From assembly GCA_051872765.1 (NCBI GenBank), contig JBJEED010000008.1, positions 6,237 to 70,236 on the forward strand: 64,000 nt of DNA, written 5' to 3'. Below the pieces are notes generated by a model. It saw nothing but the letters and a program-made list of their open reading frames with translations, had not been told where the DNA came from and did not search any database. Position numbers and translations under genes: made by a program. Shown here piece after piece: positions 5,626-28,248 of the stretch. The first letter of the stretch is position 1. Each line of letters starts with the position of its first letter. This DNA comes from Bacilli bacterium. Its GTDB lineage: Bacteria; Bacillota_I; Bacilli_A; RF39; UBA660.

Positions 5626-7599
5626 ATGACGTTTGAGATGTTTTTTTCATCATTTTTTACGACATTATGGTCATGGGATTTGGGAATAGTTAATACTATA
5701 CTATTATTTTTTGACGGAATAATCTATGATTTAGTTGCAAAGATATATGAATTATTTACATTAGTAAGTCAATTGAATTTTAATTATTTAGGGGCAATTA
5801 TTGCACCATTGATAGATAGGATACAAGCAGTAATAATGGTTTTTATTATGTTTAAATTAGGTATTGCGCTTATTCAACTTATGATAAATCCTGATGATGC
5901 CCCTAAAACCGGGCCAAAATTAATAAAAAATATATTTATTGTAGGAGCAATGCTTACCTGCTATAATTTAGTATTTAGTGCTTTAAATGAATTTAGTATG
6001 TTAATAATTGGTGTTCCAGAAAATTATTCATTTACTACATTAAATAGATTAGCGGGTGTTACTAATACTACTGATGATAATGAAGGCTTAATAAACAGAT
6101 TTATATTTGGAAAAGATTTTAATAATGTAGAAATAGGAGATTTCCTTGCATTTGAGACTCTTAGTATATTTATTAGAGATGCAAAAGATGAAACACAATC
6201 TACAATACTTGAAAAAACTATTGCTGATGGAGATGGTTATAATTTTAATAAGGTAAGTAACTTAAGTAACCAAGTTGGAAAAGATGTTTTATATTCTCCA
6301 TTTGTAAGTGGCTTGGTCGGATTATATGTTATTTATTGTATTGGTTCAGTAACTATTGAAGTAGCAGTGAGAATGTTTAAATTAATGGTTCTACAATTAT
6401 TAGCACCAATAGCTATTATTTCAAAACTAAATGAAAAAGAAAATATGTTTAATAATTTTGTTAAAACATATATACAGGTATATATGTCGGCATTTATTAG
6501 AATAGCAACGGTATTAATAATTAATGTATTTGTTGGAAAATTTATTATTAATATTGATGACTTTTTTGGTGGAACATTATCAGATGCCACTGGATTTGGA
6601 ACAAAAATGTTTTTAACACTTATAATTATCATAGCGGGATATACGTTTGCTAAGTCATTACCTGATTTTATTAAACAAATTACAGGAAAAGAAATTGGAA
6701 AGACAGATAAATCATTTGGTAATTTGATTGGTTCTATGGCTGGAATAGGTATTGGAGGCGTTGCTGGTCTTGCAGCTGGTATATCATCTGGTGCAGGAGT
6801 CGCTGGAACAATAGCGAATATGGGAGCAGGTGCTTTCAGTGGTGGAGTTAATGGATTCAAAGGTAATAATATTTCAGAAAAAATTAAAAATATGTCTGGT
6901 AGTGTTAAGAAAGATATTGCAAGAGCCGATGATTGGGGAAGACGCGGATTTGGCAATGTAGTAGGTGGTGCTGTACATGGTGCTATTGGTACTAAAGGTA
7001 GACAAGATATGCAAATGTATAAGTATGATCAAGCAAGTGGTGCATTAAAAGCATATGATGCGGCACAAATTGAAGCAGTTAAAGATTATAAAGTTGGAGA
7101 TTCAACTACAGGCTTTTCTTGGGGACAAGAGACAATTACAGATGCAAGTGGAAACGAAAGAACAGTAAATGTTGAAGATTACTATTCTAAAGGATATGAG
7201 AGTCTAAAACTTGGAGAAGATAAAGATGCATTTGCAAATCAAATGATAGAGTATGATACAAGTTATATTAATTCTATGGCACATTTAGAAGCTGCAAATG
7301 CTAGTGGAAATGAAGCTGAAATAGAAAGAGCTAAAAAAGAACTTGCAGAGGTAAAGACTGCAAGCTTAGATCGTGCTAAGAATCTTTATGATAGAAATAA
7401 AAATGCGACTAAGAACGATAATATAGATGCTAAGAGAGCTGCAGCAGAAGGTGCTGCTAAGAAAGCTGGAATTGAAATTAAAACGAAAGATGGAGCTATA
7501 GATGTTAAAGGAACAACCAAAGAAATTACCAATAAGAAACATGAACTTGAAAATAAAACATCATATGGTCAAACACATGGTGCTAGCAAAGATAAATAG
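5626..7599 (+). CDS. polytopic membrane protein, VirB6/TrbL-like T4SS channel component, with a Gly-rich segment and a long charged C-terminal tail
   Basis: Multiple hydrophobic spans across aa 1-350. Gly/Ala-rich stretch GSMAGIGIGGVAGLAAGISSGAGVAGTIANMGAGAFSGGVNG. Lys/Ala-rich coiled-coil-like tail. It sits directly upstream of the VirB3/VirB4 homologs. Confidence 0.6.
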   Translation: MTFEMFFSSFFTTLWSWDLGIVNTILLFFDGIIYDLVAKIYELFTLVSQLNFNYLGAIIAPLIDRIQAVIMVFIMFKLGIALIQLMINPDDAPKTGPKLIKNIFIVGAMLTCYNLVFSALNEFSMLIIGVPENYSFTTLNRLAGVTNTTDDNEGLINRFIFGKDFNNVEIGDFLAFETLSIFIRDAKDETQSTILEKTIADGDGYNFNKVSNLSNQVGKDVLYSPFVSGLVGLYVIYCIGSVTIEVAVRMFKLMVLQLLAPIAIISKLNEKENMFNNFVKTYIQVYMSAFIRIATVLIINVFVGKFIINIDDFFGGTLSDATGFGTKMFLTLIIIIAGYTFAKSLPDFIKQITGKEIGKTDKSFGNLIGSMAGIGIGGVAGLAAGISSGAGVAGTIANMGAGAFSGGVNGFKGNNISEKIKNMSGSVKKDIARADDWGRRGFGNVVGGAVHGAIGTKGRQDMQMYKYDQASGALKAYDAAQIEAVKDYKVGDSTTGFSWGQETITDASGNERTVNVEDYYSKGYESLKLGEDKDAFANQMIEYDTSYINSMAHLEAANASGNEAEIERAKKELAEVKTASLDRAKNLYDRNKNATKNDNIDAKRAAAEGAAKKAGIEIKTKDGAIDVKGTTKEITNKKHELENKTSYGQTHGASKDK

Positions 7600-7627
7600 A
7601 ATTTAAGAAAAGAAAGGAAAAAAGAAT

Positions 7628-7963
7628 ATGAATCAATATTTAATACCCGCCAACAGCAAAAAAAGTCAATTAATATTAGGCGTATTCACTATGACTGATT
7701 TATGGATTGCTATAGGTTCTGGAGTTATTTCGCTATTATTAATGCTTGCTATTCCTGGTGATCAATTATATATTTTAGTTATAAAATTACTGCCACTTGC
7801 AACAGGATTACTTCTTGTAGTACCAATACCACATTATCATAATGTTCTTACATTTTTAAGAGAGGTATTACTATTTATAGTTAATGAAAAGGAATATATA
7901 TGGAAAGGATGGTGTGCGACAAGCGATATTTATGGCGAAGAAACTAGAAAAAGCACAAACTGA
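7628..7963 (+). CDS. PrgI/VirB3-like small two-TM T4SS protein
   Basis: 111 aa. The N-terminus YLIPANSKKSQLILGVFTMTDLWIAIGSGV is followed by two hydrophobic helices, as in PrgI/TcpE-type proteins that precede VirB4. Confidence 0.55.
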   Translation: MNQYLIPANSKKSQLILGVFTMTDLWIAIGSGVISLLLMLAIPGDQLYILVIKLLPLATGLLLVVPIPHYHNVLTFLREVLLFIVNEKEYIWKGWCATSDIYGEETRKSTN

Positions 7964-8489
7964 AAGTTGGTTACCTATTAAAGGAATACAAAACGGTGAA
8001 ATTATTTTAGACAATGGAGTTAGAGTTACTGGTGTAAAAGTAAGGCCAAGAAATATATTTATTTTAGATTATAATTCTCAAAATAATGCAATATTTAATT
8101 TAAGAAACTTTTATAATACAATCGATTATCCTTTTTGGTTAATTGTATCTGATAGACCGGTTGATATAAATGTATATCTTGCACAATTAAAATTATTGTA
8201 TAATTCAGTCCAGGCTCAAGCAATTAGAAAATTGGTTAGAGAAGATATTGATAAGGCTAATTTGTTTATGAGTAAGGAAGTTAGTGTTACTGATACTGAG
8301 TACTTTATATTATTTAAAGATAAAAGGCCTGAAATGATACAAAAGAAAATACAAAATTTAGTATCTGGACTTGCTAGTGCAGGATTACAATCTGCTCAAG
8401 TTAGTAATGATGATTTAAGAGTCTTAATAGATGGATTTATGAATGGTGGCGATACCACTAAGTTTGGGACGGTGATGAGTACAATATGA
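7884..8489 (+). CDS. VirB4-family ATPase, N-terminal domain encoded as a separate ORF
   Basis: SWLPIKGIQNGEIILDNGVRVTGVKVRPRNIFILDYNSQNNAIFNLRNFYNTIDYPFWLIV matches the N-terminal module of Firmicute VirB4 (TraE/PrgJ/Orf16-type). The start is uncertain: ATG 7884, GTG 7914 (preceded by SD ggaaagga) or ATG 7932. It overlaps the upstream ORF by 32-80 nt. Confidence 0.6.
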   Translation: MKRNIYGKDGVRQAIFMAKKLEKAQTESWLPIKGIQNGEIILDNGVRVTGVKVRPRNIFILDYNSQNNAIFNLRNFYNTIDYPFWLIVSDRPVDINVYLAQLKLLYNSVQAQAIRKLVREDIDKANLFMSKEVSVTDTEYFILFKDKRPEMIQKKIQNLVSGLASAGLQSAQVSNDDLRVLIDGFMNGGDTTKFGTVMSTI

Positions 8490-10276
8490 GCGTAAGTTTT
8501 AAAAGCCAATTGGCTCCTAAGGGATTAGAATTTAGACCTTCTGAAATGATAATTAGTGATAAATATTGTGCTATTTTAACAATAATTAGTTATCCTAAAT
8601 CTATAAGTGAAGGTTATCTTGCAAATATTACTCAATTATCAGGAATCAAAGTATGTATTAAACATATTCCAATTGCATTTTCAGTACTATCTAAAATGCT
8701 TAATAAAGAAATAGCAGATATGAAATCTAGATATTCAAATGAGCATGATAGAACTATTCAAGAACAAATAAGACAAGATTACGAGAGTATTGAGGATTTT
8801 ATTTCAATGTTAACTGCTACTCAAGCGAGAATATTCGACTTTCAAATGCATATTATGATTTCTGCTGATTCTCATGAAGAATTAGAAAATAAAAAAGTAC
8901 AAGTTAAAAATTATTTAGATGCCATGGGAATGAAAGGTATTGTATTAAGATTTGAACAAGAAAAGATTTTAAAGAGTATGCTTCCTATATTTGAAAAAAA
9001 TGATATTGAAGATAGAGTTGGAACACCAATACCATCAGTTACTATGGCTGCGATGTATCCATTTGTATTTGATAGTATTAAAGATCCTGGACTTTCATGC
9101 TTATTAGGTGTTGATTATTCTGGTGGTGTAATTTTATTTAATCAATTTTTATATCAAACTAAAAAAGAGTTTAATAGAAATAATGCTAATATGATTATAC
9201 TAGGTACTTCTGGTAGTGGTAAATCTACTGCTGCTAAAGTATTACTTAGGGCAAATATTAGAAATGGTCATAAAATTGTAGCAATTGACCCTGAAGGTGA
9301 ACTTCAAGAAATGACTAAATTATATGGTGGAGACTTTATTGATTTAGGTAAAGGTGGAGACTTCGGTATGATTAATCCACTTGAAATAGTATTAGATGCC
9401 GATGAAGAAGAAATGGCTGAAGGTACTGGTTATGCTGTACTTACTCGTACTCTTCAAACTTTAAAAGCATTTATGAAATATTATAGTCCTGATATTGAAG
9501 AGGATGTTCTTACATTATTTAGTGAGGTTGTGCAAGATACATATAAAAGATATAAAATAGATTATGATACAGATTTTACTAAAATATTATCTCATGATTA
9601 TCCTACATTTGATGATGTTTATGCAACAATAAAAGGTAGACTTTTATCAATGACTGAACATACTCATGAAAGAGATATTATGGAAAGATTAGAACTTAAA
9701 ATCAGACCATTGACTAAAGAATTAAGATATTATTTTACAGGTAAAACTACAATTGATACTGATGCAGACTTTATTGTATTTAATATTCGTGAATTAATGA
9801 ATGCTGATAATAATATTCGTAATGCATTGTTCTTTAATATTTTGAAATATGCATGGGGACTAACATTAGATAGAGAAATTAATACAATATTAATGGTTGA
9901 TGAGGCACATATGTTGCTTGCTGATCAAAATACTTTAGGTGCTGAGTTCTTGGCTCGTATTCAAAGAAGAAGTCGTAAATATAATACTGGTACGATTATC
10001 ATTACTCAACAACCTACTGATTTTGCTGCACCAAATGTACTAATACATGGTAAGGCAATATTTGATAATGCTTCCTATTATTTAGTGATGGGATTAAAAA
10101 AGCAAGCAGTTGATGATTTGAGTAAATTGGTTGATTTAAATGAACAAGAAAAAGATTCGATTAAGAGATATAGTCAAGGTCAAGCATTGTTTGTATGTGG
10201 TAATAGAAGAATGAGAATTAATGTTATTGCTACACAACAAGAGTTAGAATCATTTGGTTCAGGTGGAGGATTCTAA
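8486..10276 (+). CDS. VirB4-family T4SS ATPase (central and C-terminal ATPase domains)
   Basis: ATGA overlap with the preceding ORF. LAPKGLEFRPSEMIISDKYCAILTIISYPKSISEGYL, Walker A ILGTSGSGKST, IDPEGE, Walker B ILMVDEAHMLL, IIITQQPTDF. Confidence 0.85.
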   Translation: MSVSFKSQLAPKGLEFRPSEMIISDKYCAILTIISYPKSISEGYLANITQLSGIKVCIKHIPIAFSVLSKMLNKEIADMKSRYSNEHDRTIQEQIRQDYESIEDFISMLTATQARIFDFQMHIMISADSHEELENKKVQVKNYLDAMGMKGIVLRFEQEKILKSMLPIFEKNDIEDRVGTPIPSVTMAAMYPFVFDSIKDPGLSCLLGVDYSGGVILFNQFLYQTKKEFNRNNANMIILGTSGSGKSTAAKVLLRANIRNGHKIVAIDPEGELQEMTKLYGGDFIDLGKGGDFGMINPLEIVLDADEEEMAEGTGYAVLTRTLQTLKAFMKYYSPDIEEDVLTLFSEVVQDTYKRYKIDYDTDFTKILSHDYPTFDDVYATIKGRLLSMTEHTHERDIMERLELKIRPLTKELRYYFTGKTTIDTDADFIVFNIRELMNADNNIRNALFFNILKYAWGLTLDREINTILMVDEAHMLLADQNTLGAEFLARIQRRSRKYNTGTIIITQQPTDFAAPNVLIHGKAIFDNASYYLVMGLKKQAVDDLSKLVDLNEQEKDSIKRYSQGQALFVCGNRRMRINVIATQQELESFGSGGGF

Positions 10277-10306
10277 TAGAATCCTCTTTTTTAAAGGAGA
10301 AGTAGT

Positions 10307-13183
10307 ATGGCTAGTAATGGAAATGCAAATAATGGAGTAGAAGAATCATCAAATAATAATATTTCAAGTTCTTCAACTACAGGAAGTAATCCTGTGGGTT
10401 TTTCTGGTGCATTAAAGCCAAATAAAGCAGATATAGATGCAATAAATAAAAGAGGTACAAACGGAGTAGAGCATTCTAAAACATTTAGAAAAAATAATAA
10501 TCTTGAAAAGCAGAGAGTAAGAACTTCTGAACTTGATAATGATGGTCTTGAAGATAAAACTAATTCTAAAATTGAAAGTAAATCTTCTAATACTAAAACT
10601 GATAATAAAGGAAAAGGAGAAAAATCAAAAAGTAAAAATAGTAGTGTTGTTGATATAGTATCAAAAAAGACTGGATTAAAATCCAAGTTATTAAAATTAA
10701 AACTTAAATTAATTATATTAGGTATAGTTTTGTCATTTTTTGTTATTATTTTTATAATTTCATATTTTATTGCCGCTTATGATGCATTATTAAATTCAAT
10801 ATCATCATTTTTTGGCATTTCCGAAACTGAAAGTGAAGAATCTTTATTGAAAAATGAAAAGTACTATATTGATCCTGAAACTGGAGAAGAATATAATACA
10901 GATGAATTAGTTGAGATGTTAAAGGAAGATGAACAATGTAAAACTACTTTTTTTAATGGTTTAAGTGATTGGTTAGATATGTTTGATGGTACAATAGACA
11001 GTTTTTGTACTTATACTAGATATGTGAAAAAAAGTATTGAAAAATTAGAAAAAAAATATCCAACTCTTCATATGGATAGAGCTTTAGTATTATCAGGAAT
11101 ATTTTATGGATACGCAGCTCAACCAAATTATTCTGAGTATATAGATAGTTATAATGCACCATATACAATTAGTGCGGCAGAACATTATGAATCTTTAATG
11201 GATATGCTTAAATCTGGTACTCTTACAGTTGATGATTTAGATGATATGATTAATAATGCAGTTGCCAATCATACACATCCTTATTATGAATGGCAAGTAG
11301 AAGATATATATGATAGAAAAGGAAAATTAATTGAATCTGTTGGTAAGTGTATTAAACAAGAGCAACAAGATGTAAAATATAGTCTACTTAGATGGCAAAT
11401 GTTTTTAAGATTTGGAGATAGTACAGTTAAAACCTATGATAAATTAATGATTAGAAAGAAAGCTTGGGCGTCATCTGATGTTGAATGTAATGGTACTGTA
11501 GATGATGCTACATTACTAGCAAAAATTTCTGCATCTGGAGCACCTAAAAATACTATTGATAATTCTGTTAGAGTTGCGCAAAAATATTTACAAGAGTATG
11601 AAGATCCACCTAATATGAATTTATTTGAACAAAAGGCAGAAATAGAAGGATATGAAAAAGATGTCTTTGAATCATATAATTATAAAGATATATCAGTTAA
11701 TTTTGATTATGTTAATGGATTTGCCTATAATAGATTTCCATACTTTAAAAGAGCATATGAATCTAATATGACTGAACTTTATTATGATGAAGCAATTACT
11801 CCAAAAGTAATTGAAACATTAATATTAAATTCAGAAGAAAAGAAAACGGTAATGAATGATATACTTAATTTTGAAGATCAAGATAATCCTTTAGCATATT
11901 CAAATTTTGGTACGATGTGGTCATCTGTTGGTGGAGCATATTGTGCAGATTATGTTGCAGTTCCATTTAATCAAATAGAGGTAATTATTAAAGATTGTGA
12001 TGGTAGAGAAATAGGCAAAACTAGTTTTAAAGACTATATTATGGGTGTAGCTTATGGAGAAGTAAGTGATAGACATGATGATTATGTTAAATCTGAAATG
12101 GTAGCCGCTATTAGTTATTCTCTTGCAAGAAGAGGAAATTATACAAAAGTTCCAACTATTACTATGAAATCAGGAAACTGTGATCAAGTTTATTGCCCAA
12201 TGAATTCAGGGTGCTCTAGTAATAAATCTAATTTAGATTGTGGTGGATTTTCATGTACTTCTTATTATCCAGGTACAGGTTATACTATGTATCATGGTGC
12301 AGCGGGAGATGCATTAATACAAAAATATGCAAGGTTATATGATGAAGCATCTCAATTCTTACTTGTTAAAGATGGTGCTGTATATAGTGCTGGCTATGTT
12401 TCAACTGTTCAAAATAAGTGGTATGAAATGGCTAAGAGTGGTATGTCATTTACTCAAATAATGCAAGAAACTTATGGTCCAGATGGTGCGGAACTCGTTC
12501 AGTGTATAAATATTGATGATTCTAATAATTCATCAACTATAGCCGATAATAGTATGGGAAATGGGCCTAGTACAGATAGTGTAACAATTAAGAAAGTTGG
12601 TAATACTATTAGTGAAAAGTATGATAAATTATCTCCAGATTTAGGTAAATTTTATGGTTATTCATACAATGATGATCCTGTTGGTAGAGATATTACTATT
12701 AACCCAGATTGGATTAATGCAAATATTATAACAATTAATACTACTTGGAATACATCATATAGAGTTAATACACAAGCAAAATATAATTTTGAACTTGCTT
12801 ATAAAAATATAGGAAATATACTTAATAATGGTGTTAAATTAAGTGATGGAAATATATGTAAATATACAATTGATGACTTACAAGGCGGAACAACATTTGA
12901 ACAAAGAAAATCATCAAGTGGTTTATTTAGTGAAGCATCTTATGGAATTGTTCAATCGTGGAATTATAATAAAGTATATACAATCAATAATAAAGTTTAT
13001 AAACCATATTCTAAGGGTAGTACGATAAGTGATTATAATGAATTTGTAGAGGCACTTGGAAGAGAAGAAGATTGTAGAAATATTAATTATATTTTATATA
13101 AATATGCGTATGAACCGGCAGGTTTTGTTTGGGGAAAAAATAGTGATAACTATGATAGTTCATTATTTAAAATAAATTATTAA
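10307..13183 (+). CDS. T4SS-associated cell-wall hydrolase. It has a low-complexity N-terminus, one TM, a SpoIID/LytB-like domain and a C-terminal M15 (LAS)-like domain whose metal ligands appear substituted.
   Basis: TM LIILGIVLSFFVIIFIISYFIAAY. The SpoIID-like pattern KDYIMGVAYGEVS...YVKSEMVAAISYSLARRGNY...SGNCDQVYCP is encoded at about nt 11935-12205. M15-like remnants are SEASYGIVQSWN (12929-12964) and GFVWGKNSDNYDSSLF (13121-13168). Confidence 0.65.
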   Translation: MASNGNANNGVEESSNNNISSSSTTGSNPVGFSGALKPNKADIDAINKRGTNGVEHSKTFRKNNNLEKQRVRTSELDNDGLEDKTNSKIESKSSNTKTDNKGKGEKSKSKNSSVVDIVSKKTGLKSKLLKLKLKLIILGIVLSFFVIIFIISYFIAAYDALLNSISSFFGISETESEESLLKNEKYYIDPETGEEYNTDELVEMLKEDEQCKTTFFNGLSDWLDMFDGTIDSFCTYTRYVKKSIEKLEKKYPTLHMDRALVLSGIFYGYAAQPNYSEYIDSYNAPYTISAAEHYESLMDMLKSGTLTVDDLDDMINNAVANHTHPYYEWQVEDIYDRKGKLIESVGKCIKQEQQDVKYSLLRWQMFLRFGDSTVKTYDKLMIRKKAWASSDVECNGTVDDATLLAKISASGAPKNTIDNSVRVAQKYLQEYEDPPNMNLFEQKAEIEGYEKDVFESYNYKDISVNFDYVNGFAYNRFPYFKRAYESNMTELYYDEAITPKVIETLILNSEEKKTVMNDILNFEDQDNPLAYSNFGTMWSSVGGAYCADYVAVPFNQIEVIIKDCDGREIGKTSFKDYIMGVAYGEVSDRHDDYVKSEMVAAISYSLARRGNYTKVPTITMKSGNCDQVYCPMNSGCSSNKSNLDCGGFSCTSYYPGTGYTMYHGAAGDALIQKYARLYDEASQFLLVKDGAVYSAGYVSTVQNKWYEMAKSGMSFTQIMQETYGPDGAELVQCINIDDSNNSSTIADNSMGNGPSTDSVTIKKVGNTISEKYDKLSPDLGKFYGYSYNDDPVGRDITINPDWINANIITINTTWNTSYRVNTQAKYNFELAYKNIGNILNNGVKLSDGNICKYTIDDLQGGTTFEQRKSSSGLFSEASYGIVQSWNYNKVYTINNKVYKPYSKGSTISDYNEFVEALGREEDCRNINYILYKYAYEPAGFVWGKNSDNYDSSLFKINY

Positions 13184-13197
13184 TATAAGGAGGAAGA

Positions 13198-13989
13198 ATG
13201 AATAAAGAGAAAAAAATTACATTTATGATTATTTTAACTGCAATAGTACTTTTATCTATTATTACTATTCCTCTTATTATCAAATATAATATAGAAAAAG
13301 ATAAAGATAATTTTCCTGAATATAAAGATATCGATATTGATGAAGATTTATTGAGTAATGAGCAAACTTATGAACAAATAAAAAAAGACTTACAAAATGA
13401 TTTCTACTTTAATAAACTTGCAATAATGACAGATTATGATTATAAAGAGTCATCTACTGAAAATTTACAAGACTTATTATGGCATTTTATATTTAATTAT
13501 GAATTATCTAATGACAGTTATTTTTCATATACTGATTCAGCAAATGGTAAATATTGTTTCAGTAAAAAGAACTTAATAAATGCTTTTAATGAATTTTATA
13601 AGTTGGATATTACAGATAAATATAATTATTTAGAAGGTTATTATAAATATGTTTATATTAGTTCAAAAGGATATTGCTTAGATTTTAAAAGGGTATCTGA
13701 TGAGTATGATAATAATATAAAAATAGCTATTGAGAGAATGTCTATTCTTGGTACTACTATAACAACAGATTTATATGTTTATGAATACTATGCAAGTTCT
13801 ACTAATGAAAAATATTATGAAAATTTATTAGGGCAAGCAATTGATAGTAAAGATTATTCCAAAGCTAAGACATTAGTTGAAAATTACTTAAATGGTACAG
13901 TAACTCATAAGCAAATACAATTTAAAAAGAATACTAGAGGAAAATATTTTAAATATCAAATTTTAGTTAGTAAAAAATTAGTTTATTAA
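13198..13989 (+). CDS. N-terminally membrane-anchored protein of the T4SS operon. It occupies the positional slot of VirB8/TcpC-like components, but homology is not established.
   Basis: 263 aa with a single N-terminal TM (ITFMIILTAIVLLSIITIPLII) and SD aaggagg. No diagnostic motif seen. Confidence 0.4.
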   Translation: MNKEKKITFMIILTAIVLLSIITIPLIIKYNIEKDKDNFPEYKDIDIDEDLLSNEQTYEQIKKDLQNDFYFNKLAIMTDYDYKESSTENLQDLLWHFIFNYELSNDSYFSYTDSANGKYCFSKKNLINAFNEFYKLDITDKYNYLEGYYKYVYISSKGYCLDFKRVSDEYDNNIKIAIERMSILGTTITTDLYVYEYYASSTNEKYYENLLGQAIDSKDYSKAKTLVENYLNGTVTHKQIQFKKNTRGKYFKYQILVSKKLVY

Positions 13990-14038
13990 TGAAAAAAAAT
14001 ATATTATATTGTATAATATATTTGTATGAGGTGAGACT

Positions 14039-16279
14039 ATGAAGTTGAAATTTAGAGCAGAGAAAAAAGATTTTATAATATTTCTTATTTTTTGCGGAGT
14101 ATTGTTATACTTAGTTGCTGTAGCTGTAGTTAATTTAAATAGTTTTGCAGTTGATGGAGTATTTAGTGGTTTAAATCCATTACCTGCATTTTCATTAGAT
14201 TTTATATTTTATACATTAGTTGTGTATATATTTGTAATAGCTGCATTAATGCTTGGTTGTTCTTCTTATTTTTTCGAAAGAGAAAAAGGTTTTGGTATAT
14301 CAACTGAACAAAAAAGTAAAAATGATGGTTATTCAAAACTAATGTCAGATAGTGAAATGAAAAAAGATCGTGGTATTGTTAAAATTAAGCTAACTGATGA
14401 TACTTATGAAGGAGGAGGTATTCCATTTATAAATGATGGAGTAAATGCATGGGTAGATAATAGTGGAGAACCACACGCACTTATTATGGGTGCTTCTGGT
14501 TCTGGTAAAACACAATGTATGATGTTTCCTCTTCTTAAAATTCTTGCAAGACATGGAGAAAGTGTTATTGTAACAGACCCTAAAGGTGAATTATATGAAG
14601 AATGTGGAAAGTTATTGCAGGAAAAGGGGTATAAAGTTATATTATTAAACTTCCGTGATCCTAAAGAAGGATCCGCATGGAATCCATTTAGTTATCCATA
14701 TAGAATATATAAAGAAGGAAATGTAGATAAAGCAAATGAATTGTTACAAGACCTTGCCAGTAATATATTAATAGATCCAAATAATAAAGCAGAACCATTT
14801 TGGGAACAAACAGCATCTAACTTTTTCACAGGATTATCACTAGGCTTATTTGATGATGCTCCTGAAGAAGAAGTTAATATTAATAGTATTAATATGATGG
14901 CGGAAGTTGGTGAGGATAGAATTGGTCCATCAACTTATATAAAAGAATATTTTAAAGCTAAGGGAGAGTTATCTCCTGCCTATATAGCAGCAGCATCTTG
15001 TATAAATGCACCTAATGAAACTCGTGGTGGAATTATGTCTACATTTAGAACAAAGACAAGAATTTTCTCATCACAAGAATCATTATCAGAAATGCTTTCA
15101 TATAGTGATTTTGATATTAGGGATATTGGAAAAGAAAAAACTGCAATATTCTTAAAAGTTCACGATGAAAAAACAACTTATCATGCTCTTGCTACTATAT
15201 TTGTAAAACAAGCATATGAAGCATTGATTGCAACGGCTCAAACATTTCCTAATTTAAAACTTCCTTATAGAACTAATTTTATATTAGATGAATTTGCAAA
15301 TATGCCTGCTATTAAAGATATTGGAACAATGATAACTGCATCTCGTTCAAGAAATATTAGATTTAGTTTCGCTATTCAAAACTTTTCACAATTAAATCAA
15401 GTATATGGAAAAGAAGTTGCAGAAACAATTAAAGGTAACTGTGGAAACTTTGTTTATATCATGAGTACAGAATTAGCTGCTTTAGAGGAAATTAGTAAAT
15501 TACTTGGTGATCAAAAACCTGATAAACCTAAAAAAGATGAACCAGCGCCACCAATTAGACCATTATTTACTGTAAGTGATTTACAAGCGTTAAAAGAAAA
15601 TGAAGTTATATTTAATAGATTTAGAAGTATGCCTTATAAAACTAAACTTACTCCAAACTGGAAAATTGACTGGGGAAGAAAATATGAAAAAATGGGATAC
15701 TCTCAAAGGCCACCACATGAAGTAAAGGTTTTTGATTTAAAAGATTTTGTTCAAAAGTTAAAGGATAAACAAGGAGTTCCTGTTGGATCAGGAATGCCTG
15801 GTGGTTTTAGTGCTGGTATGCCAGGAATGGTAGGTATGCCGGGAATGGTAGGTGGAGGTATGCCAAATCCATTTGCTAGTCCAGGGCCTGTACCAGGAGG
15901 TAGAGGATCATCATCTGGAATTGTACCTACGAGTCTTGATGACTATGTTAGAAAACTTGATGAAAAAATTGCTGAGCTAGAAAGAGAAGAAGCAGAAGAA
16001 AAAGCAAGACAAGAAAAAGAAAAGCAAGCATTATCACAAGGTGTAGTAGAGCAAAAAGAAGTTGTGAAAGAAAAGACACAAGAAGAAATACAAAAAGAAA
16101 TGAATGATATATTTAATCATAACTTAAAAGGAATTACAAGTGAAGAGGAAAAAAATACACAACAATCAACTTACGAAAATATAGAGAATCCTAAAGTTAA
16201 TGTTGATGTTGATAGTGTTGTTGTAAAAAACAATAATAATGATGATGATTTCTTTGATGATTTCTTTGGAAGTGAATAA
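14039..16279 (+). CDS. VirD4/TraG-family type IV coupling protein with an unusual C-terminal tail
   Basis: Two N-terminal TMs. Walker A IMGASGSGKTQ, VTDPKGELYE, Walker B NFILDEFANMPAI, SRSRNIRFSFAIQNFSQLNQVYG. The tail contains GMPGGFSAGMPGMVGMPGMVGGGMPNPF, a coiled coil, and ends DDDFFDDFFGSE. Confidence 0.85.
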   Translation: MKLKFRAEKKDFIIFLIFCGVLLYLVAVAVVNLNSFAVDGVFSGLNPLPAFSLDFIFYTLVVYIFVIAALMLGCSSYFFEREKGFGISTEQKSKNDGYSKLMSDSEMKKDRGIVKIKLTDDTYEGGGIPFINDGVNAWVDNSGEPHALIMGASGSGKTQCMMFPLLKILARHGESVIVTDPKGELYEECGKLLQEKGYKVILLNFRDPKEGSAWNPFSYPYRIYKEGNVDKANELLQDLASNILIDPNNKAEPFWEQTASNFFTGLSLGLFDDAPEEEVNINSINMMAEVGEDRIGPSTYIKEYFKAKGELSPAYIAAASCINAPNETRGGIMSTFRTKTRIFSSQESLSEMLSYSDFDIRDIGKEKTAIFLKVHDEKTTYHALATIFVKQAYEALIATAQTFPNLKLPYRTNFILDEFANMPAIKDIGTMITASRSRNIRFSFAIQNFSQLNQVYGKEVAETIKGNCGNFVYIMSTELAALEEISKLLGDQKPDKPKKDEPAPPIRPLFTVSDLQALKENEVIFNRFRSMPYKTKLTPNWKIDWGRKYEKMGYSQRPPHEVKVFDLKDFVQKLKDKQGVPVGSGMPGGFSAGMPGMVGMPGMVGGGMPNPFASPGPVPGGRGSSSGIVPTSLDDYVRKLDEKIAELEREEAEEKARQEKEKQALSQGVVEQKEVVKEKTQEEIQKEMNDIFNHNLKGITSEEEKNTQQSTYENIENPKVNVDVDSVVVKNNNNDDDFFDDFFGSE

Positions 16280-20401: not shown

Positions 20402-21949
20402 ATGAATACATTTTTAAGATTCTTTTATGAATTTATTTCTGTATTCTTTGATGGCTTATTTAGTGGTTTTAAAGGCTTATGGAATGGAATTAAAGAAATG
20501 TTTAAAATTAGTAAGTATGCAAAAATATTAGGAGAATATAAAGAAAGTTTTAATGGTAATGAAAAAGTATTCGTTATTTTATGTATAATCTTCTTAGTAT
20601 TAATAATACTTATGATAGCTATGATTTTATATCTAGTAATCAAGAAGTTAATTAGAAGAGCTACTAATAGAATGAGTAGAGAAGAATTACTTGAAGAAAT
20701 AGCAGGACTTAATGATAAAGTTCGTAAATTAATGAAAGAAAAAGAAGAATTAATGGCTATGAAAGTTTCCCAATTAGGATTAAATCCAGATGATAAAGAA
20801 AGTAATCAAAAAGATAAAAATAAAGATGGAGAAAATGAATCTGAGTCAGAAGAATTTGATAAAGAAACAGCTATTAGATTCCCAACTCTTACATTAATAG
20901 ATGAAGAATATAAGAATTATAAGATTAAAAATTATGAAAATAACTTTACTTTAAAAGAGTTAGTTGATAATTTTAGATGTTTTGCAGCAAGTCAATTAAA
21001 ATTATATTATTCAGAAACATTATTAAGACCTTTTATAGCAGGGCTTGCTTGTGGTAAATTAATTATTTTGCAAGGTATATCTGGTACAGGTAAAACTTCA
21101 CTTGCTTATGCTTGGGGAAAATTTGTATGTAATGATTCTTGTGTTTCTTCTGTAGAACCTTCGTGGAGAGATAAAACTGATTTCTTAGGATATTTTAATG
21201 AACTTACTAAAAAATTTAATGAGACAAGAGCACTTGGTGAGATATATAAAGCAGGATATGATGATAATGTTCATACTATTATATTAGATGAAATGAATTT
21301 AGCTCGTGTTGAATATTATTTTGCTGATTTATTATCAATACTAGAAATGCCAAGGAGAGAAGAATGGTTAGTAGATATTGTTTCTAGTCCATGGCCAAAA
21401 GATCCTAAAAAAATAGAAAAAGGTAAACTTAGATTACCTGGTAATTTATGGTATATTGGTACGATTAATAATGATGATTCAACTTTCCTTGTTACAGATA
21501 AAGTTTATGATAGAGCAATGCCAATAGATATTAATGATAAAGTACCAGCTTTTAAATGTAGAGAACAAGAGGCAGTTCCTATGAATTCTAGTTATTTAGA
21601 ATCATTGTTCCAAGAGGCAATTGATAAATATCCTCTATCTGATAAAACTTTAAACGAAGTTACTAAAATAGATGATTATGTAATTGAGCATTTTAGAATT
21701 GCTTTTGGTAATCGTATTATGAAACAATTAGGTGTATTTACAGCAGTATATGTAGCATGCGGCGGTAAAGAAATGGAAGCAATTGATTACTTTATTGCTA
21801 AGAAAATATTAAGAAAATTTGATCAATTAAGTATTTCTTATATTAGGGATGAAATAGATCCATTCATTTCATTCTTAAATAAAAATTATGGTAAAGGTAC
21901 TATGAAAGAATGCATAGCATTTTTAGAAAGAATTAAGAAAAGTATATAG
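20402..21949 (+). CDS. membrane-anchored McrB-family (COG1401/AAA_5-like) AAA+ NTPase
   Basis: TM VFVILCIIFLVLIILMIAMILYLVI, then coiled coil SREELLEEIAGLNDKVRKLMKEKEELMAMK. McrB-type core: LQGISGTGKTSLA (Walker A, about nt 21074-21100), IILDEMNLARVEYYFADLLSILE, LPGNLWYIGTINNDDSTFLVTDKVYDRA. Confidence 0.75.
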   Translation: MNTFLRFFYEFISVFFDGLFSGFKGLWNGIKEMFKISKYAKILGEYKESFNGNEKVFVILCIIFLVLIILMIAMILYLVIKKLIRRATNRMSREELLEEIAGLNDKVRKLMKEKEELMAMKVSQLGLNPDDKESNQKDKNKDGENESESEEFDKETAIRFPTLTLIDEEYKNYKIKNYENNFTLKELVDNFRCFAASQLKLYYSETLLRPFIAGLACGKLIILQGISGTGKTSLAYAWGKFVCNDSCVSSVEPSWRDKTDFLGYFNELTKKFNETRALGEIYKAGYDDNVHTIILDEMNLARVEYYFADLLSILEMPRREEWLVDIVSSPWPKDPKKIEKGKLRLPGNLWYIGTINNDDSTFLVTDKVYDRAMPIDINDKVPAFKCREQEAVPMNSSYLESLFQEAIDKYPLSDKTLNEVTKIDDYVIEHFRIAFGNRIMKQLGVFTAVYVACGGKEMEAIDYFIAKKILRKFDQLSISYIRDEIDPFISFLNKNYGKGTMKECIAFLERIKKSI

Positions 21950-21965
21950 AAAGGATTAGATTTAT

Positions 21966-23117
21966 ATGGCAAATAAAAATAAATACTCAATTAATAAAAT
22001 AGATGAAAATCTTAAAATTAATGTAAATCATTTTTTAAGTAATATAGAATCAGATATGTTATATAAGTCTAATTATTATGGTGATTTGTTAGATTTTGAT
22101 TGGTTAGATGAAATAGAAAAAGCATGTCCTCATATAGATACTATTGTTAGAAATCCTAAATTAACATTAATTAAGGAAGAAGAAGTAGTTAAGATGGAAA
22201 AGGCTAAAGTAATAACAGTAGAAACTATTAAAGATTTAGCAAAACATACAAACTATATTGATAAATTTGATACTTCAAAGGATAAAGTTGAGCCTAAAAA
22301 AGTTCTAATGGTTCATAGTGAAGAAACATTTAATATATATGAAAATAGATTTTTATATACTTTAATAGATTGTATTGATAGATTTGTTGCAAAAAAAGAA
22401 AATGATTTTAAATCAGTTAATGATTTAAATGATACTAAATTTATTGAATATAGTGGTAATAGTAAAACTGAGACTGAAAAAATTCATATAGATCTTAAGA
22501 TTACATCAGATATAATAAATGTTGATAATATTAATGATAATGTTAAAAAAGAAATTAAAGATGCTTTAAAAAGAATTAAGAGAATAAAAGAATATTTAGG
22601 TAGTTGGCGTAAAAGTGCGATGTATCAAGAATTAGAAAAACAGCATGTATCTCTTATTCAACCACCAATAAAGAAAACAAATATTATATTAAAAAATCCT
22701 AATTTTGGAATTGCAACAAAATTATGGGATTATTTAAGAAAATATGATTTAGAAGATTATAGTGAAGAAAGGTTAAGAAATGATATTGAAAGAGAAAAGA
22801 ATGATTTAAAATCTTTAATAGATCATAGTTTCTTTATTAATTTTTGTGTACTATCTTCTATCAGTAAATATAAAAAAGAGCAAAGACAAAAAATATGTGA
22901 TCATGCAGTAGTATTATTAACAGAGGAAATAAGAAATGTTATTTCAATACTTCAAAATAATGGTTATGAGATAACAGATGAAGAAATATTGCAAATGATG
23001 GCTAAAGAAATAAAGAAAAAACCTGTTAGTAGTAGATTAGCAGGTATGGAAGATGTTAAAAACAAATTTAAAACAGCAATGGATGAATATTTAGAAAGGA
23101 CACAAGATTACTTGTGA
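21966..23117 (+). CDS. McrC-N-terminal/DUF2357-like partner protein, with no clear nuclease motif
   Basis: It directly follows the McrB-like gene. WLDEIEKACPHIDTIVRNPKLTLIKEEEVVKMEKAKVITVETIKDLAKH...TFNIYENRFLYTLIDCIDRFV resembles the region of McrC-like proteins that contains an ENRF-type motif. Only a weak D...IDLK candidate (aa 153-178) is present for a PD-(D/E)xK site. Confidence 0.45.
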   Translation: MANKNKYSINKIDENLKINVNHFLSNIESDMLYKSNYYGDLLDFDWLDEIEKACPHIDTIVRNPKLTLIKEEEVVKMEKAKVITVETIKDLAKHTNYIDKFDTSKDKVEPKKVLMVHSEETFNIYENRFLYTLIDCIDRFVAKKENDFKSVNDLNDTKFIEYSGNSKTETEKIHIDLKITSDIINVDNINDNVKKEIKDALKRIKRIKEYLGSWRKSAMYQELEKQHVSLIQPPIKKTNIILKNPNFGIATKLWDYLRKYDLEDYSEERLRNDIEREKNDLKSLIDHSFFINFCVLSSISKYKKEQRQKICDHAVVLLTEEIRNVISILQNNGYEITDEEILQMMAKEIKKKPVSSRLAGMEDVKNKFKTAMDEYLERTQDYL

Positions 23118-23725: not shown

Positions 23726-24892
23726 GTGAAAGAAAGATATAAAACATATTTAAAATTGAATCTTGTTTCTATATTTTTTATAGCAGTTTCTTTTATTTCG
23801 ATTTCTCTTGCATGGTTTGCTTATAGTGGACTTGTTCGTACTCAAACTGAAATAGATGTTAAAGCTTGGCATATAGAGTTTAATAAAAATGGAGAAGCCG
23901 TATCTAATAATGTAGTTATATCTCTTAGTGATATACAGCCTGGAATGAATAGTACATATGAAAAAATAAATATTAAGAACTATGGTGATTCTGATGCTAA
24001 AATATCATATAAAATAGAAGAGGTTAGAATATTAAATGAAGATTTAAGCATCCCAATTGAATTTGGTTTAATAGAAGATAAATTAGCTAATGATTATCCA
24101 TTTAGCATTAATGTTTCCTTAAATAAAAAATATTTAGATGCTAAGACTGGCGAAGCAGTATTAAATATTGGTGTTGCTTGGCCACTTGATTCAAATACTG
24201 ATGAAGAAGATAGCTATTGGGGAAATTTAGCTTATGAGTATCAACAAACTAATCCAGATGCTCCTTCTATTAAAATTGTGATAGTTATTAAAGCAGAACA
24301 AAATACTGATAATTATAAATATAATTCAGGAGATGTATTTTTATATGATGCTGTTAATAATGTTAAATGTGATAAATTAGGAAATACATGTATTAAAACT
24401 CATATATTAAATACTAATGTAAGTGAGGGTGATGAATTACTTTTACTTCCTGATTTATATGATACTTATCATAGTGGTACATTTAATGAGTATGATACTT
24501 TACTTACAAATACATGGGCTGTAGATAATAGAGATTTAAAATTAAGTGATATATTAAATTTAGTATCTCAAGATATTGACAATACTTATCTTATAAGAAA
24601 TAATTTATCTGATAGAATAATAGGATACATTGAATATAATAATAGATTTGATAGTTATTTAAATAATATTATTAAACCTTATAATTCTTATATTAAATAT
24701 GATACAACAAAATATAGTTTTTTATCATCTAGTAATTGTTATTGGATTAACACTGAATATAATGAAACTCAGGCTTTTGCACTTGTTAAAGATCAAAATA
24801 AAGGAAACATAATTACTCCATATGATAAAACAAATACTTGTAGTGTTATTCCTGTAATAACTTTAAATAAAAGTGTATTAATAAATGAATAG
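23726..24892 (+). CDS. exported protein with a SipW-cognate-type signal peptide, a TasA/camelysin-like N-domain and an extra C-terminal domain
   Basis: GTG start after SD aggagg. The signal end ISLAWFAYSG compares with TasA/CalY ...WAAFND / FAYFSD. ISLSDIQPGMNSTYEKINIKNYGDSDAKISYKI matches the TasA-family beta-sandwich pattern. The C-terminus is ...CYWINTEYNETQAFALV...NTCSVIPVITLNKS. Confidence 0.6.
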   Translation: MKERYKTYLKLNLVSIFFIAVSFISISLAWFAYSGLVRTQTEIDVKAWHIEFNKNGEAVSNNVVISLSDIQPGMNSTYEKINIKNYGDSDAKISYKIEEVRILNEDLSIPIEFGLIEDKLANDYPFSINVSLNKKYLDAKTGEAVLNIGVAWPLDSNTDEEDSYWGNLAYEYQQTNPDAPSIKIVIVIKAEQNTDNYKYNSGDVFLYDAVNNVKCDKLGNTCIKTHILNTNVSEGDELLLLPDLYDTYHSGTFNEYDTLLTNTWAVDNRDLKLSDILNLVSQDIDNTYLIRNNLSDRIIGYIEYNNRFDSYLNNIIKPYNSYIKYDTTKYSFLSSSNCYWINTEYNETQAFALVKDQNKGNIITPYDKTNTCSVIPVITLNKSVLINE

Positions 24893-25010: not shown

Positions 25011-25622
25011 TTAAATCTTTTGTGTAAATTGTATATTAGCTTTAATTTGTAAATTATCTTGAGTATTTGATACTTGAGTATCTGAAATATCATCCATTAA
25101 TTCATTTTCTCCTTCATACCATTCAAAATATATTCTAATTGTAAATGGTTCAAATGAATAATTTTCTTCTTGATTATCATAAATTAAAGTTCCTTTTATT
25201 TGATTATTTTCAATATTATTTAATGTAAGTGTATCATTTTCATTATATGAGCTATCTATTAGTGAGTAATTACTTATTAATAAGTCTGGCATATCTTGAT
25301 TTAATAATTCAAGTGTTATAGTGTAATCAAATGATAATTCTACATTTGTAGGATCTACTAAAATATCAAAATATCCTTTAGAAGTAGGAGCGAATGTATT
25401 TGCCTTTATATTTTCATTTTCTTCTAAAACTGGAGCAAGTACTATTTCTGAAGAATTATTATCTGTTATATCATTTTCATTAATTAATATTTGCCATTTA
25501 GAAAATTGCATTTCTAAATTACTTGCGGCATCAACAATATATCTAGAGTAAGTATTACTAATTAATGATATTGTAAATGTCGATACTATAAGTACTAATA
25601 ATACTTTTAATTTATTCTTCAT
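25011..25622 (-). CDS. small exported protein with an N-terminal signal/anchor, probably a SipW-substrate-class (TasA-like fold) protein
   Basis: MKNKLKVLLVLIVSTFTISLISNTYSRYIV..., then FAPTSKGYFDILVDPTNVELSFDYTITLE, a pattern common in SipW-dependent exported proteins. SD ggaggagg. Confidence 0.5.
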   Translation of the reverse strand: MKNKLKVLLVLIVSTFTISLISNTYSRYIVDAASNLEMQFSKWQILINENDITDNNSSEIVLAPVLEENENIKANTFAPTSKGYFDILVDPTNVELSFDYTITLELLNQDMPDLLISNYSLIDSSYNENDTLTLNNIENNQIKGTLIYDNQEENYSFEPFTIRIYFEWYEGENELMDDISDTQVSNTQDNLQIKANIQFTQKI

Positions 25623-25797
25623 GTTACCTCCTCCTTATCTTTACTTTATTATATATTATACATTTAATATACACAATTATTTACATAAAAAAAGTGAAAT
25701 AAAATGTAAAGTTTTACATATAATTTTACAATTATTACATAAATTAATGCTTGATTATTTAATATTAATATAATATTATAAGTCATAGGTGATTTTT

Positions 25798-26928
25798 ATG
25801 GAAAATAAAAACAATATCAATAAAGAAATGTTATTTGCTAAATCTTTTTATCTTCTTGGAAAATCTATGGATACATGTTATGATTGTTCTTATTGTAGAC
25901 TTAATGGGGAAAAGTGTGAGAGTAAACAATATGAAGTAATACCTAGTGATATTAATCCTATATTTACTAATTTGCCGGTTGCTGTTAATTTATTTTATGG
26001 AGATCCTTTGTTACAAATAGAACAAACTATTAAATATTTAGAACAATTAGAGCAAGCTGGTCATAAAGGAATAGTAACAATTATTACTAAAGGAGATTTT
26101 AGTAAGTTTCCTGATAGAGAGTTTAATTTAGATTTACATATTGCTTTTTCAACGTTTGGTGTAGATTCTTATTTAGATGGTAGTTCTATGAGTAGGTTTG
26201 AAAATAATTTGAGTCAAATTGAAAAACGAAAACATAATTATAAATATTCAATAGAGTATAGGCCAATAGTATATAATATAAATGATAGTGAAGAAGCATT
26301 TAATAGGGTAATTCAACTTGCTAAAAAATACAACCTTTCAATTGGATATTCTGGTCTTCAAGGTAAAAAAGAAAGTGTTAAAATATGGAATGAAATGGGA
26401 TATTCTGAGTTACAGCCTTATCCTGGTTATAATTTTGGCCATAAGAAAATCATAGATGAAAAGGTTATTAAACTATTTGAAACAATAGCTAAGAGGGAAG
26501 GAGTGAATGTTTTTAGAAAAACTTCTTGTTTATTTTCATATACTCATGGACTTGATAGAGACTATAATGCTCATTATTATAGACCAAGTGAACTTGGATG
26601 TGAAAATTGTATAATGAGAGAAAAATGTATGGAATATAAAGCTAATTTACCTCTTGATAATAATTTAAGTGATATTATTCCATTTGATTATGAAATTGTT
26701 CATAAAGATAAACATATATGTATTCTAAAGCAAAAGGGTATATGTGAGTTCCCAACAGAGGATTGTGGAAAAATAAGTGGAAATATTATTAGAATTAACG
26801 ATATAATAACAACATCAGATGTTAGGGTTATAAAATGGTTAACTGGTTACACAGTTGATGCTGATTTTTTTGAATCGCCATATATAAGTGAAAACTGGTC
26901 TATGGGACAAAAAATATTAAAAAAATAA
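25798..26928 (+). CDS. Cys-rich protein, possible Fe-S / radical-SAM-like enzyme (uncertain)
   Basis: N-terminal cluster TCYDCSYC (CxxCxxC), followed by barrel-like segments (VAVNLFYGDPLL, VTIITKGD). C-terminal Cys clusters are CENCIMREKC and CILKQKGICEFPTEDC. ATG 25798 follows SD aggtga. Confidence 0.35.
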   Translation: MENKNNINKEMLFAKSFYLLGKSMDTCYDCSYCRLNGEKCESKQYEVIPSDINPIFTNLPVAVNLFYGDPLLQIEQTIKYLEQLEQAGHKGIVTIITKGDFSKFPDREFNLDLHIAFSTFGVDSYLDGSSMSRFENNLSQIEKRKHNYKYSIEYRPIVYNINDSEEAFNRVIQLAKKYNLSIGYSGLQGKKESVKIWNEMGYSELQPYPGYNFGHKKIIDEKVIKLFETIAKREGVNVFRKTSCLFSYTHGLDRDYNAHYYRPSELGCENCIMREKCMEYKANLPLDNNLSDIIPFDYEIVHKDKHICILKQKGICEFPTEDCGKISGNIIRINDIITTSDVRVIKWLTGYTVDADFFESPYISENWSMGQKILKK

Positions 26929-27228: not shown

Positions 27229-28248
27229 ATGAAATATTATAGTAATGAAATAGTGTTTAGAGGTCATCCTGATAAAGTGTGTGATCAAATAAGTGATGCT
27301 TTATTAGATGAATGTTTGAAGCAAGATAAGAATAGTTGATGCGCTATTGAAGTAATGGGTGGTAAAGGAAAGATATTTATTACTGGTGAAATTACTACTA
27401 AAGCAAAATTAGATGTAATTAATATTACTAAAAGAGTACTTAGAGATGTTGGTTATGATACTAATTATGAGATAGTAGACAACTTAGGAAAGCAAAGTGT
27501 AGACATTGCTCTTGGAACAAATGATAAAGTAGGTGGTGCTGGGGATAATGGAATGATGTTTGGATACGCATGTAAGCAAACAGATAAATATTTGCCACTA
27601 TCTATGGTGATTCTTTAAGAATTTAGTGAATCTTATGATAAACTAAGAAAAAAAGATAGTAGATTTAAAAGTGATGGTAAAGCACAAATAACAGGTATTT
27701 ATGATAATAATAAATTAGTAGCTATAAAATACTTTACTATTTGTTATCAAAATACAGAAACTCAAAGGGATAAGACAGATAAAATATTAATAGATATAGC
27801 TAATAATATAGTAAATAAATATCAAATTAATGTAGAAAACTATTTGATAAATCCAACAGGAAGGTTTTGTATTGGAGGTTTTGATGGAGATGCCGGACTT
27901 ACAGGTAGAAAAATTGTAGTTGATAGTTATCAATCTTTTGCAAATGTTGGTGGTGGTGCTTTTTCTGGAAAAGATCCTAGTAAAGTTGATAGAAGTGGTG
28001 CTTATAAAGCAAGAGAAATTGCAAAAGAATATGTTAAAAATAATAATTATGAATGGTGTTTAGTACAATTATCTTATGCTATTGGTAAAGAAGAGCCACT
28101 AGCAATATATATAACAACCGATAAGGGAGATATAAATGTTCCTAAAAAGCTATATAAGGAATGCAAACCAAAAAATATAATTAAAGATTTAAATCTTAAA
28201 AATATATGTTATGAAGATAGGGCAAAATTTGGTCATTTTAGAGATTAA
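27229..28248 (+). pseudogene. metK: S-adenosylmethionine synthetase gene interrupted by two in-frame stop codons
   Basis: One reading frame gives [28 protein letters not shown]...KNS*CAIEV...GAGDNGMMFGYAC...PLSMVIL*EFSE...INPTGRFCIGGFDGDAGLTGRKIVVDSY...GGGAFSGKDPSKVDRSGAY. TGA lies at 27337-27339 (aligned to the conserved Arg of ..ARVACE..). TAA lies at 27616-27618. There is no frameshift. Confidence 0.85.

Follow-up and report, generated by a model that had tools for sequence, protein, structure and literature searches.

A membrane-anchored McrB-like NTPase and its nuclease-free DUF2357 partner form a conserved gene block with SipW-type signal peptidases in uncultured gut and rumen Bacillota

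A 64,000-nucleotide (nt) stretch of the genome of a Bacilli bacterium of the RF39 lineage (GenBank assembly GCA_051872765.1, contig JBJEED010000008.1, positions 6,237 to 70,236), referred to here as the window, encodes a McrB-like nucleoside triphosphatase (NTPase) of 515 amino acids (aa) with a predicted transmembrane (TM) anchor and a 383-aa partner of the DUF2357 type. The pair lies within a conserved block that also contains SipW-type signal peptidases and two predicted secreted or anchored proteins, which we call X and Y (Table 1). On the combined evidence it is very probably a member of CoCoPALM, a large clade of McrB-like guanosine triphosphatases (GTPases) with the sensor motif NxD that was named in one paragraph by Bell, Makarova, Wolf and Koonin (eLife 2024, PMC11090510). 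We put at about even the chance that the pair is a nucleotide-driven membrane machine which aids a SipW-dependent surface fibre and does not cut foreign DNA. The initial annotation of this DNA recognized the two genes of the pair and overlooked two points, namely that they belong to a conserved operon of signal peptidases and secreted proteins, and that the architecture had already been named.

The pair is linked to signal peptidases and secreted proteins by a constant gene block. When one genome per species was scanned, at least 243 species had a relative, and 80 loci were kept for comparison. The carriers are all uncultured gut or rumen Bacillota, with records variously labelled Bacilli, Clostridia, Erysipelotrichaceae, Tenericutes and others. 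Throughout the 80 species-level loci the order is essentially kept as McrB-like gene, DUF2357 partner, SipW, X and, on the opposite strand, Y, with identities down to 53% for the McrB-like protein and to about 30% for the partner. The genes of the outer flanks, RmuC and UvrB, are not kept. In 78 of the loci SipW follows the partner directly, and no SipW match comes after the partner in the other two (L009 and L027). Most species have a fuller locus of 11–13 genes, with several proteins of ~200–340 aa in which an N-terminal TM segment is followed by TYAKY, FAWF, TYALFE or TYAWFT. Fuller loci also contain a SipW-like paralogue without the SGSM catalytic serine motif (L019, 3575–4108; L005, 5394–5948; L063, 3767–4294), which is absent from the window. 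This paralogue seems to be without peptidase activity and may serve as a chaperone or scaffold.

The same association is seen in a second lineage, which was reached through a relative 43% identical and of the same N-terminal architecture (P0365) and was followed in 80 metagenome loci. The G+C content of this lineage is 47%, versus 24% in that of the window. Its gene order runs from four to six TYAWF-type proteins through SipW, the McrB-like gene, the DUF2357 partner and a second SipW to further TYAWF proteins, and both of the flanking peptidases are confirmed as SipW-type. The partners, at 580–1259 aa, combine DUF2357 with long apolipoprotein-like helical repeats, and no nuclease family was detected in them. 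Because the gene order recurs in this second lineage, the association reaches well beyond the shared ancestry of one clade.

The distribution of the block was also considered with respect to mobility. Full-length homologues of the McrB-like protein at 69% identity or more number over 8000. Neither the 72,556 plasmids nor the 50,697 phage records that were searched contain a full-length copy of the gene. In loci where both genes are shared, the McrB-like protein and UvrB have diverged alike, with identities of 87 and 88%, respectively, in L001, and of 57 and 69% in L075. Judged by these comparisons, the block behaves as a core gene and not as a mobile element.

Two kinds of unusual gene were seen among the fuller loci. 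In L034 (10658–11941) and L023 (10656–11903), the downstream SipW and X are read as one open reading frame (ORF) of 415–427 aa, which is either a fusion of peptidase and substrate or the result of a lost stop codon. Separately, a repetitive, β-rich protein of 600–1200 aa with a SipW-like N-terminal motif opens the cluster in L005 (821–4057), L073 (415–4002) and L049 (179–1984). It belongs to no Pfam family and could be a tip adhesin.

The assignment of the first gene of the pair to the McrB/AAA_5-type NTPases, which had been made from its motifs, is backed by profile and structure matches. The 515-aa protein matches the Escherichia coli McrB structures 6hz4, 6ut6 and 7vsr (E about 3e-5 across aa 192–390) and the NCBIfam McrB model (1.4e-5). 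The PADLOC candidate PDC-M26A is far closer (1.3e-38), and Pfam AAA_5 gives a weak match only. Homology to McrB, as measured by these profiles, is significant but distant. The motifs quoted in the initial annotation (GISGTGKTS, ILDEMNLARVEYYFADLLSILE, GTINNDDSTFLVTDKVYDRA, WLDEIEKACPHIDTIVRNP and YENRFLYTLIDCIDRFV) are all present in the translations of the two ORFs. In an alignment of the 80 relatives, the Walker A motif GISGTGKTS, the Walker B motif ILDEMN, the sensor segment GTINNDDSTF and VTDKVYDRAMPIDIN (the VTDKVYDRA region) are near-invariant. Such constancy of the catalytic motifs speaks for a strongly constrained and active enzyme.

The sensor motif further defines the branch of the family. 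A search of 1.84 billion cluster representatives returned 710 relatives at E ≤1e-30, and among the nearest 150 the motif is N-x-D wherever it was found, with D, E, Q or G as the fourth residue. The segment GTINNDDST is invariant in the 80 relatives. HMMER aligns NNDD with NTAD of E. coli McrB gap-free, and the "deletion" implied by NxD is not visible in a single protein. By its motif, the protein belongs to the NxD branch of McrB-like GTPases as defined by Bell et al.

The AAA+ domain spans residues ~185–515. The initial annotation had placed an amphipathic segment, a TM helix and a coiled coil where McrB proteins carry a DNA-binding domain, and this description holds. The N-terminal 185 aa consist of these three elements and an acidic linker, with no DNA-binding domain. 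The amphipathic segment (aa 1–55) is conserved, with M1, F7, Y39 and Y46 invariant and E54 and W55 nearly so. The TM helix follows at ~56–80, with a Kyte-Doolittle peak of 3.67 in aa 49–87, and behind it lies a basic patch, with six Lys or Arg residues in the next 15 positions as against three before the helix. A hydrophobic segment is present in 28 of 28 aligned relatives, and at least one N-terminal TM helix precedes the AAA+ domain in 84 of 147 scored cluster representatives, the other 63 having long soluble N-terminal regions. The hydropathy peak, the conservation and the recurrence among cluster representatives together argue that the predicted helix is not spurious. The coiled coil at aa ~93–127 is leucine-zipper-like (LLEE..LN..V..L.KEKEE..AMKVSQLGL) and is among the best-conserved parts of the N-terminus. 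From the positive-inside rule and the need of the enzyme for cytoplasmic nucleotide, the AAA+ domain is predicted to be in the cytoplasm and the first 55 aa outside.

Other N-termini occur on related AAA+ domains, both in close relatives at 50–54% identity (P0367, P0369 and P0373) and in multi-TM relatives at 36–41% identity (P0393, P0444 and P0446). In these proteins the amphipathic and coiled-coil module is exchanged for a large predicted extracellular domain with one TM helix or for multi-pass membrane domains. Predicted membrane-tethered McrB-like NTPases are in this respect architecturally diverse.

The second gene of the pair had been described as resembling the DUF2357-type, N-terminal part of McrC, and its match to Pfam DUF2357 (1.7e-10, above the gathering score) supports this, as do the matches of 40 out of 40 diverse relatives. 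Neither the 383-aa sequence nor a profile built from the partners finds a relative among Protein Data Bank (PDB) sequences, and PADLOC gives no match for it. Comparison of the partner profile with E. coli McrC by hhalign detects no similarity (probability 0.1%), which is expected since the E. coli protein does not belong to the DUF2357 type. The invariant positions of the partner are E120, Y125-E126-N127-R128 and the block PPIKKTN.ILKN.NF...W.

The initial annotation could find no convincing PD-(D/E)xK nuclease in the partner, and none is found here by sequence, by profile or in an AlphaFold model. No nuclease family of any kind, PD-(D/E)xK included, matches any of 40 partners at 26–77% identity, and the partner alignments contain no conserved acidic-acidic-lysine triad. 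In the one candidate triad proposed earlier (D153 or D156 with D175 and K177), the residues given as D175 and K177 are really D176 and K178. All four positions vary freely among relatives, the first being mostly S, the second D, N or E, the third S, E or N, and the fourth S, N or K. The AlphaFold model, built from 71 sequences, has a predicted local distance difference test score (pLDDT) of 70 and a predicted template modelling score (pTM) of 0.45. It is elongated and mostly helical, with helices of 25–35 residues at 119–153, 191–215, 265–298 and 303–331 and a helical C-terminus. A check of aa 150–180, suggested earlier as a possible restriction-endonuclease-like core, places the candidate residues in a β-hairpin (156–183) with no core of that type. 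The αβββαβ nuclease core is likewise absent from the model as a whole, and Foldseek comparison with the PDB gives noise only (E 0.5 or worse). The best-conserved stretch of the partner (aa 68–121) is modelled at low confidence, which would fit an interface that becomes ordered only upon binding to the ring.

Signal peptidases stand on both sides of the pair in the window. The protein upstream (670 aa) begins with a SipW/archaeal-type signal peptidase I (TIGR02228, 7.1e-20, aa 14–162) with the catalytic motifs SGSM...THRV and TM segments at 5–38 and 136–167, and continues after the second TM segment as a predicted cytoplasmic domain of ~500 aa. The C-terminal part of this protein matches the ~335-aa ORFs found upstream in L019 and L063, and in most relatives the cytoplasmic domain stands alone as a ~335-aa protein whose gene immediately precedes the McrB-like one. 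A reading of the domain as a degenerate EAL domain was dropped, as it had no support in Pfam. The 190-aa peptidase downstream of the partner matches TIGR02228 at 3.4e-23 and the SipW model at 2e-20.

Candidate substrates for these peptidases are encoded next to them. X has a TM segment at 7–37 and a conserved core of ~200 aa, followed by a C-terminal extension specific to the sublineage of the window; its relatives have a median length of 211 aa and the motif N[ST]FAWFIY. The AlphaFold model of Y (pLDDT 70) consists of an N-terminal helix and a jelly-roll-like β-sandwich, and its best Foldseek matches are jelly-roll and carbohydrate-binding-module β-sandwiches at E about 1e-3. Neither X nor Y is matched by Peptidase_M73 (TasA/camelysin) in Pfam, and neither has a sequence match to TasA or camelysin. 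Two TYAWFT proteins of fuller loci score 16.5–18.1 bits on TIGR04088, a model of the SipW-dependent type of signal peptide with a cutoff of 19. Apart from this near-threshold score, no Pfam or NCBIfam family is matched by the protein families fam1, fam4, fam5, fam6, fam7 and fam8 or by the ~335-aa protein. In X and Y of the window, a putative SipW-type motif (LAWFAY and NTYSRY, respectively) is visible by eye only. From its model, it is plausible but unproven that Y is a fibre subunit.

These features can be accommodated in a model that borrows from the structures and biochemistry of McrBC. The AAA+ protein would form a hexameric ring, into which the DUF2357 protein would insert to stimulate hydrolysis of GTP or another nucleoside triphosphate. 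Where McrBC translocates and cleaves DNA, this machine would relay the hydrolysis cycle, by way of the coiled coil and TM helices, to the outer side of the membrane, where it would drive or gate the processing, export or polymerization of SipW-cleaved β-sandwich subunits into a fibre or pilus. The first SipW would be coupled to the machine by the cytoplasmic domain to which it is fused. The pair may derive from McrBC systems that lost DNA recognition and nuclease and were then recruited to the membrane, and this explanation, taken whole, is in our judgement as apt to be right as wrong. A role in surface-fibre biogenesis has similarly balanced prospects, and the specific motor model is to be held with less confidence than that role. 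More tentative, and somewhat doubtful, is the broader proposal of a new surface-filament machinery. According to this proposal, a membrane NTPase ring and a DUF2357 "shaft" would take the part played elsewhere by a PilB-type adenosine triphosphatase (ATPase), a sortase or a chaperone-usher system, assembling or extruding SipW-processed subunits as a core, vertically inherited trait of uncultured low-G+C gut and rumen Bacillota.

Several points count against a fibre-assembly machine. Fibres of the TasA type form extracellularly with no NTPase (literature on TasA and on archaeal bundling pili), and the need for a motor is puzzling. The hexamer, the insertion of the partner and the nucleotide preference are all drawn by analogy with McrBC, and the model of the partner is of moderate quality only. 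Compared with its relatives, the window has a reduced locus, from which several of their subunit genes are missing. The secreted proteins of the locus belong to no Pfam family. The model of Y matches generic β-sandwiches weakly, with TasA outside the top 50, and the Y profile finds only designed proteins among PDB sequences, at E 0.38 or worse. Finally, no experiment on any CoCoPALM was found, and the single paragraph mentioned above is the only description of the class that we could locate.

Among the other explanations, the one that survives best, though we still think it unlikely, is that the pair serves regulation or quality control of signal-peptidase processing. As an ATPase it would then be a checkpoint, giving licence for cleavage by SipW or reporting the status of the fibre to the cytoplasm, and would not be a mechanical assembly motor. 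It draws on the same linkage to two SipW genes and on the fusion of one SipW to a cytoplasmic domain, and the assembly of TasA-type fibres without an NTPase speaks in its favor. Against it, the block contains no DNA-binding or signalling output domain recognizable by Pfam. The present data do not separate this reading from the motor model.

Another reading is defence or abortive infection, with the NTPase sensing an invader and the TM helix and amphipathic N-terminus damaging the membrane in place of the lost nuclease. The ancestry of the family lies in type IV restriction systems, a PADLOC defence candidate is the nearest profile, the sister clades with long coiled coils resemble CoCoNuT defence systems, and N-terminal TM helices are frequent among the nearest cluster representatives. 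The genomic setting, however, is unlike that of defence islands. The genes form one fixed block across the loci compared, diverge at a rate similar to UvrB and have no full-length plasmid or phage copy, and PADLOC finds no other match among the neighbours. The operon partners in two distant lineages are signal peptidases and secreted proteins, and we therefore regard a defence role as quite unlikely.

The N-terminus also invites comparison with the divisome. An FtsB/FtsL/DivIC-like TM helix and leucine zipper could bring the NTPase to the division site, with SipW serving general secretion, and conservation of the core-gene kind would suit such an envelope factor. When the N-termini of 28 family members were compared with division families, FtsL was matched by 11 (best E 0.0025), FtsL_2 by 8 and DivIC by 7 (best E 0.068). 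All of these matches are sub-threshold and stand amid many other families that combine a TM segment with a helix. The coiled coils of FtsB and FtsL lie outside the membrane, whereas that of the McrB-like protein is predicted to be cytoplasmic. Although Bell et al. call the module FtsB-homologous (PMC11090510), the conserved block contains no division genes and consists mainly of genes for SipW and for its candidate substrates, which makes a role in division improbable. An ordinary McrBC whose nuclease is too divergent to detect is hardly credible: the McrB homology and the DUF2357 partner would allow it, but all 40 partners lack a nuclease family, the model has no α/β core, no triad is conserved, and the DNA-binding N-domain is replaced by a conserved TM anchor.

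Table 1. Genes of the conserved block and of the type IV secretion-like set in the window (positions count from the first letter of the window).
Feature	Position	Strand	Remarks
SipW-fusion protein, 670 aa	18376–20388	+	stop codon 13 nt ahead of the McrB-like gene
McrB-like AAA+ NTPase, 515 aa	20402–21949	+	NxD branch; predicted to be membrane-anchored
DUF2357 (McrC N-terminal) partner, 383 aa	21966–23117	+	16 nt after the McrB-like ORF
SipW-type signal peptidase I, 190 aa	23128–23700	+	SGSMEP...THEV; 10 nt after the partner gene
Protein X, 388 aa, predicted secreted or anchored	23726–24892	+	N-terminal hydrophobic segment, then LAWFAY
Protein Y, 203 aa, predicted secreted, candidate fibre subunit	25011–25622	−	convergent; hydrophobic helix, TY[AS][KR]Y, β-sandwich
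TrbL-like	5626–7599	+	type IV secretion-like set
VirB4/TraG P-loop ATPase	8486–10276	+	type IV secretion-like set
958-aa protein, no family	10307–13183	+	type IV secretion-like set
VirD4/TraG coupling protein	14039–16279	+	type IV secretion-like set

The setting of the block in the window is chromosomal, with RecG, UvrB, phosphoribosyl pyrophosphate synthetase and RelA/SpoT present. A scan for promoters and terminators was uninformative in this AT-rich DNA, as 90 sites were seen and 90 expected. A type IV secretion-like gene set lies upstream of the block (5626–16279, plus strand), and the gene order from VirD4 to RmuC is common to the window and its closest relative, L001. The set may be an integrated conjugative element or a resident system. 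Downstream, a 379-aa Cys-rich ORF (CYDCSYC...; 25789–26928, plus strand) has no Pfam or NCBIfam match; it does not lie beside the cluster in other species and is probably unrelated to it. The gene metK, for S-adenosylmethionine synthetase (27229–28248, plus strand), is split among at least three ORFs (27229–27339, 27355–27618 and 27844–28248), suggesting either a pseudogene or assembly errors that shift the frame.

McrBC is known from textbooks as a restriction enzyme. In the block described here, strong purifying selection maintains its motor module in the absence of nuclease and DNA-binding domain, and the module is tied to signal peptidases and to secreted proteins. Should the pair assist fibre assembly, a defence motor would have been recruited into a cell-surface machine, and the assembly of Gram-positive filaments would have a new source of energy. 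The carriers are abundant, uncultured gut and rumen bacteria, and a surface fibre conserved across the clade might mediate adhesion or interaction with the host.

Compared with canonical McrBC of E. coli, the pair has a homologous AAA+ core, the DE-x-N form of Walker B, an Asn sensor and a partner gene immediately downstream. It differs in that the N-terminal DNA-binding domain is replaced by a membrane anchor, the sensor is N-x-D and not NxxD, and the partner has no PD-(D/E)xK nuclease and is not detectably similar to McrC of E. coli. The earlier conclusion is upheld: a McrBC-like membrane pair that lacks a nuclease falls outside the conventional type IV restriction enzymes. The closest AAA+ relatives are of the CoCoNuT/PDC-M26 kind, with 37–45% identity to proteins of 700–870 aa that have long N-terminal regions, and the motif NxD[D/E] and nuclease-free McrC homologues are held in common. 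The coiled coils of CoCoNuTs are described as long and soluble, and a HEPN or other nuclease always accompanies these systems (PMC11090510). In the window protein, by contrast, a TM helix precedes a coiled coil of about 35 aa, and neither a nuclease nor a HEPN family was found in the window block, the fuller loci or the second-lineage partners.

The other half of the block is most like the operons tapA-sipW-tasA of Bacillus subtilis and sipW-bsaA of Clostridium perfringens. These combine a dedicated SipW with small secreted proteins of the β-sandwich or jelly-roll type, as the block is predicted to do, and the N-termini of their subunits have a motif like [GST]-T-[YFW]-A-x-[FY], which those of the candidate substrates resemble. 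They have no NTPase, however, and X and Y have no sequence match to TasA or camelysin. A gut pilus cluster reported from TANB77 (PMC11680825) was also considered and set aside, as it encodes a Tad-type pilus at a different locus.

CoCoPALM was described as a McrB-like GTPase fused to an FtsB-like TM segment and coiled coil, associated with signal peptidases and with coiled coils in both subunits; its authors deferred the class to a later paper (PMC11090510). Our literature search found the name in no other paper. For FtsB homology of the N-terminus in the window, only the sub-threshold FtsL and DivIC matches were seen, and the predicted topology, with the coiled coil in the cytoplasm, is opposite to that of FtsB. 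The pair agrees with the description in the NxD-type McrB-like NTPase with TM helix and coiled coil, in the signal-peptidase genes that stand upstream, as a fusion, and downstream of the pair, and in the nuclease-free DUF2357/McrC-like partner with its long helices. Nothing that we tested contradicts membership in the class. The published text gives no gene-by-gene anatomy of the locus, and the anatomy worked out here offers concrete constructs for a first test of the named CoCoPALM class.

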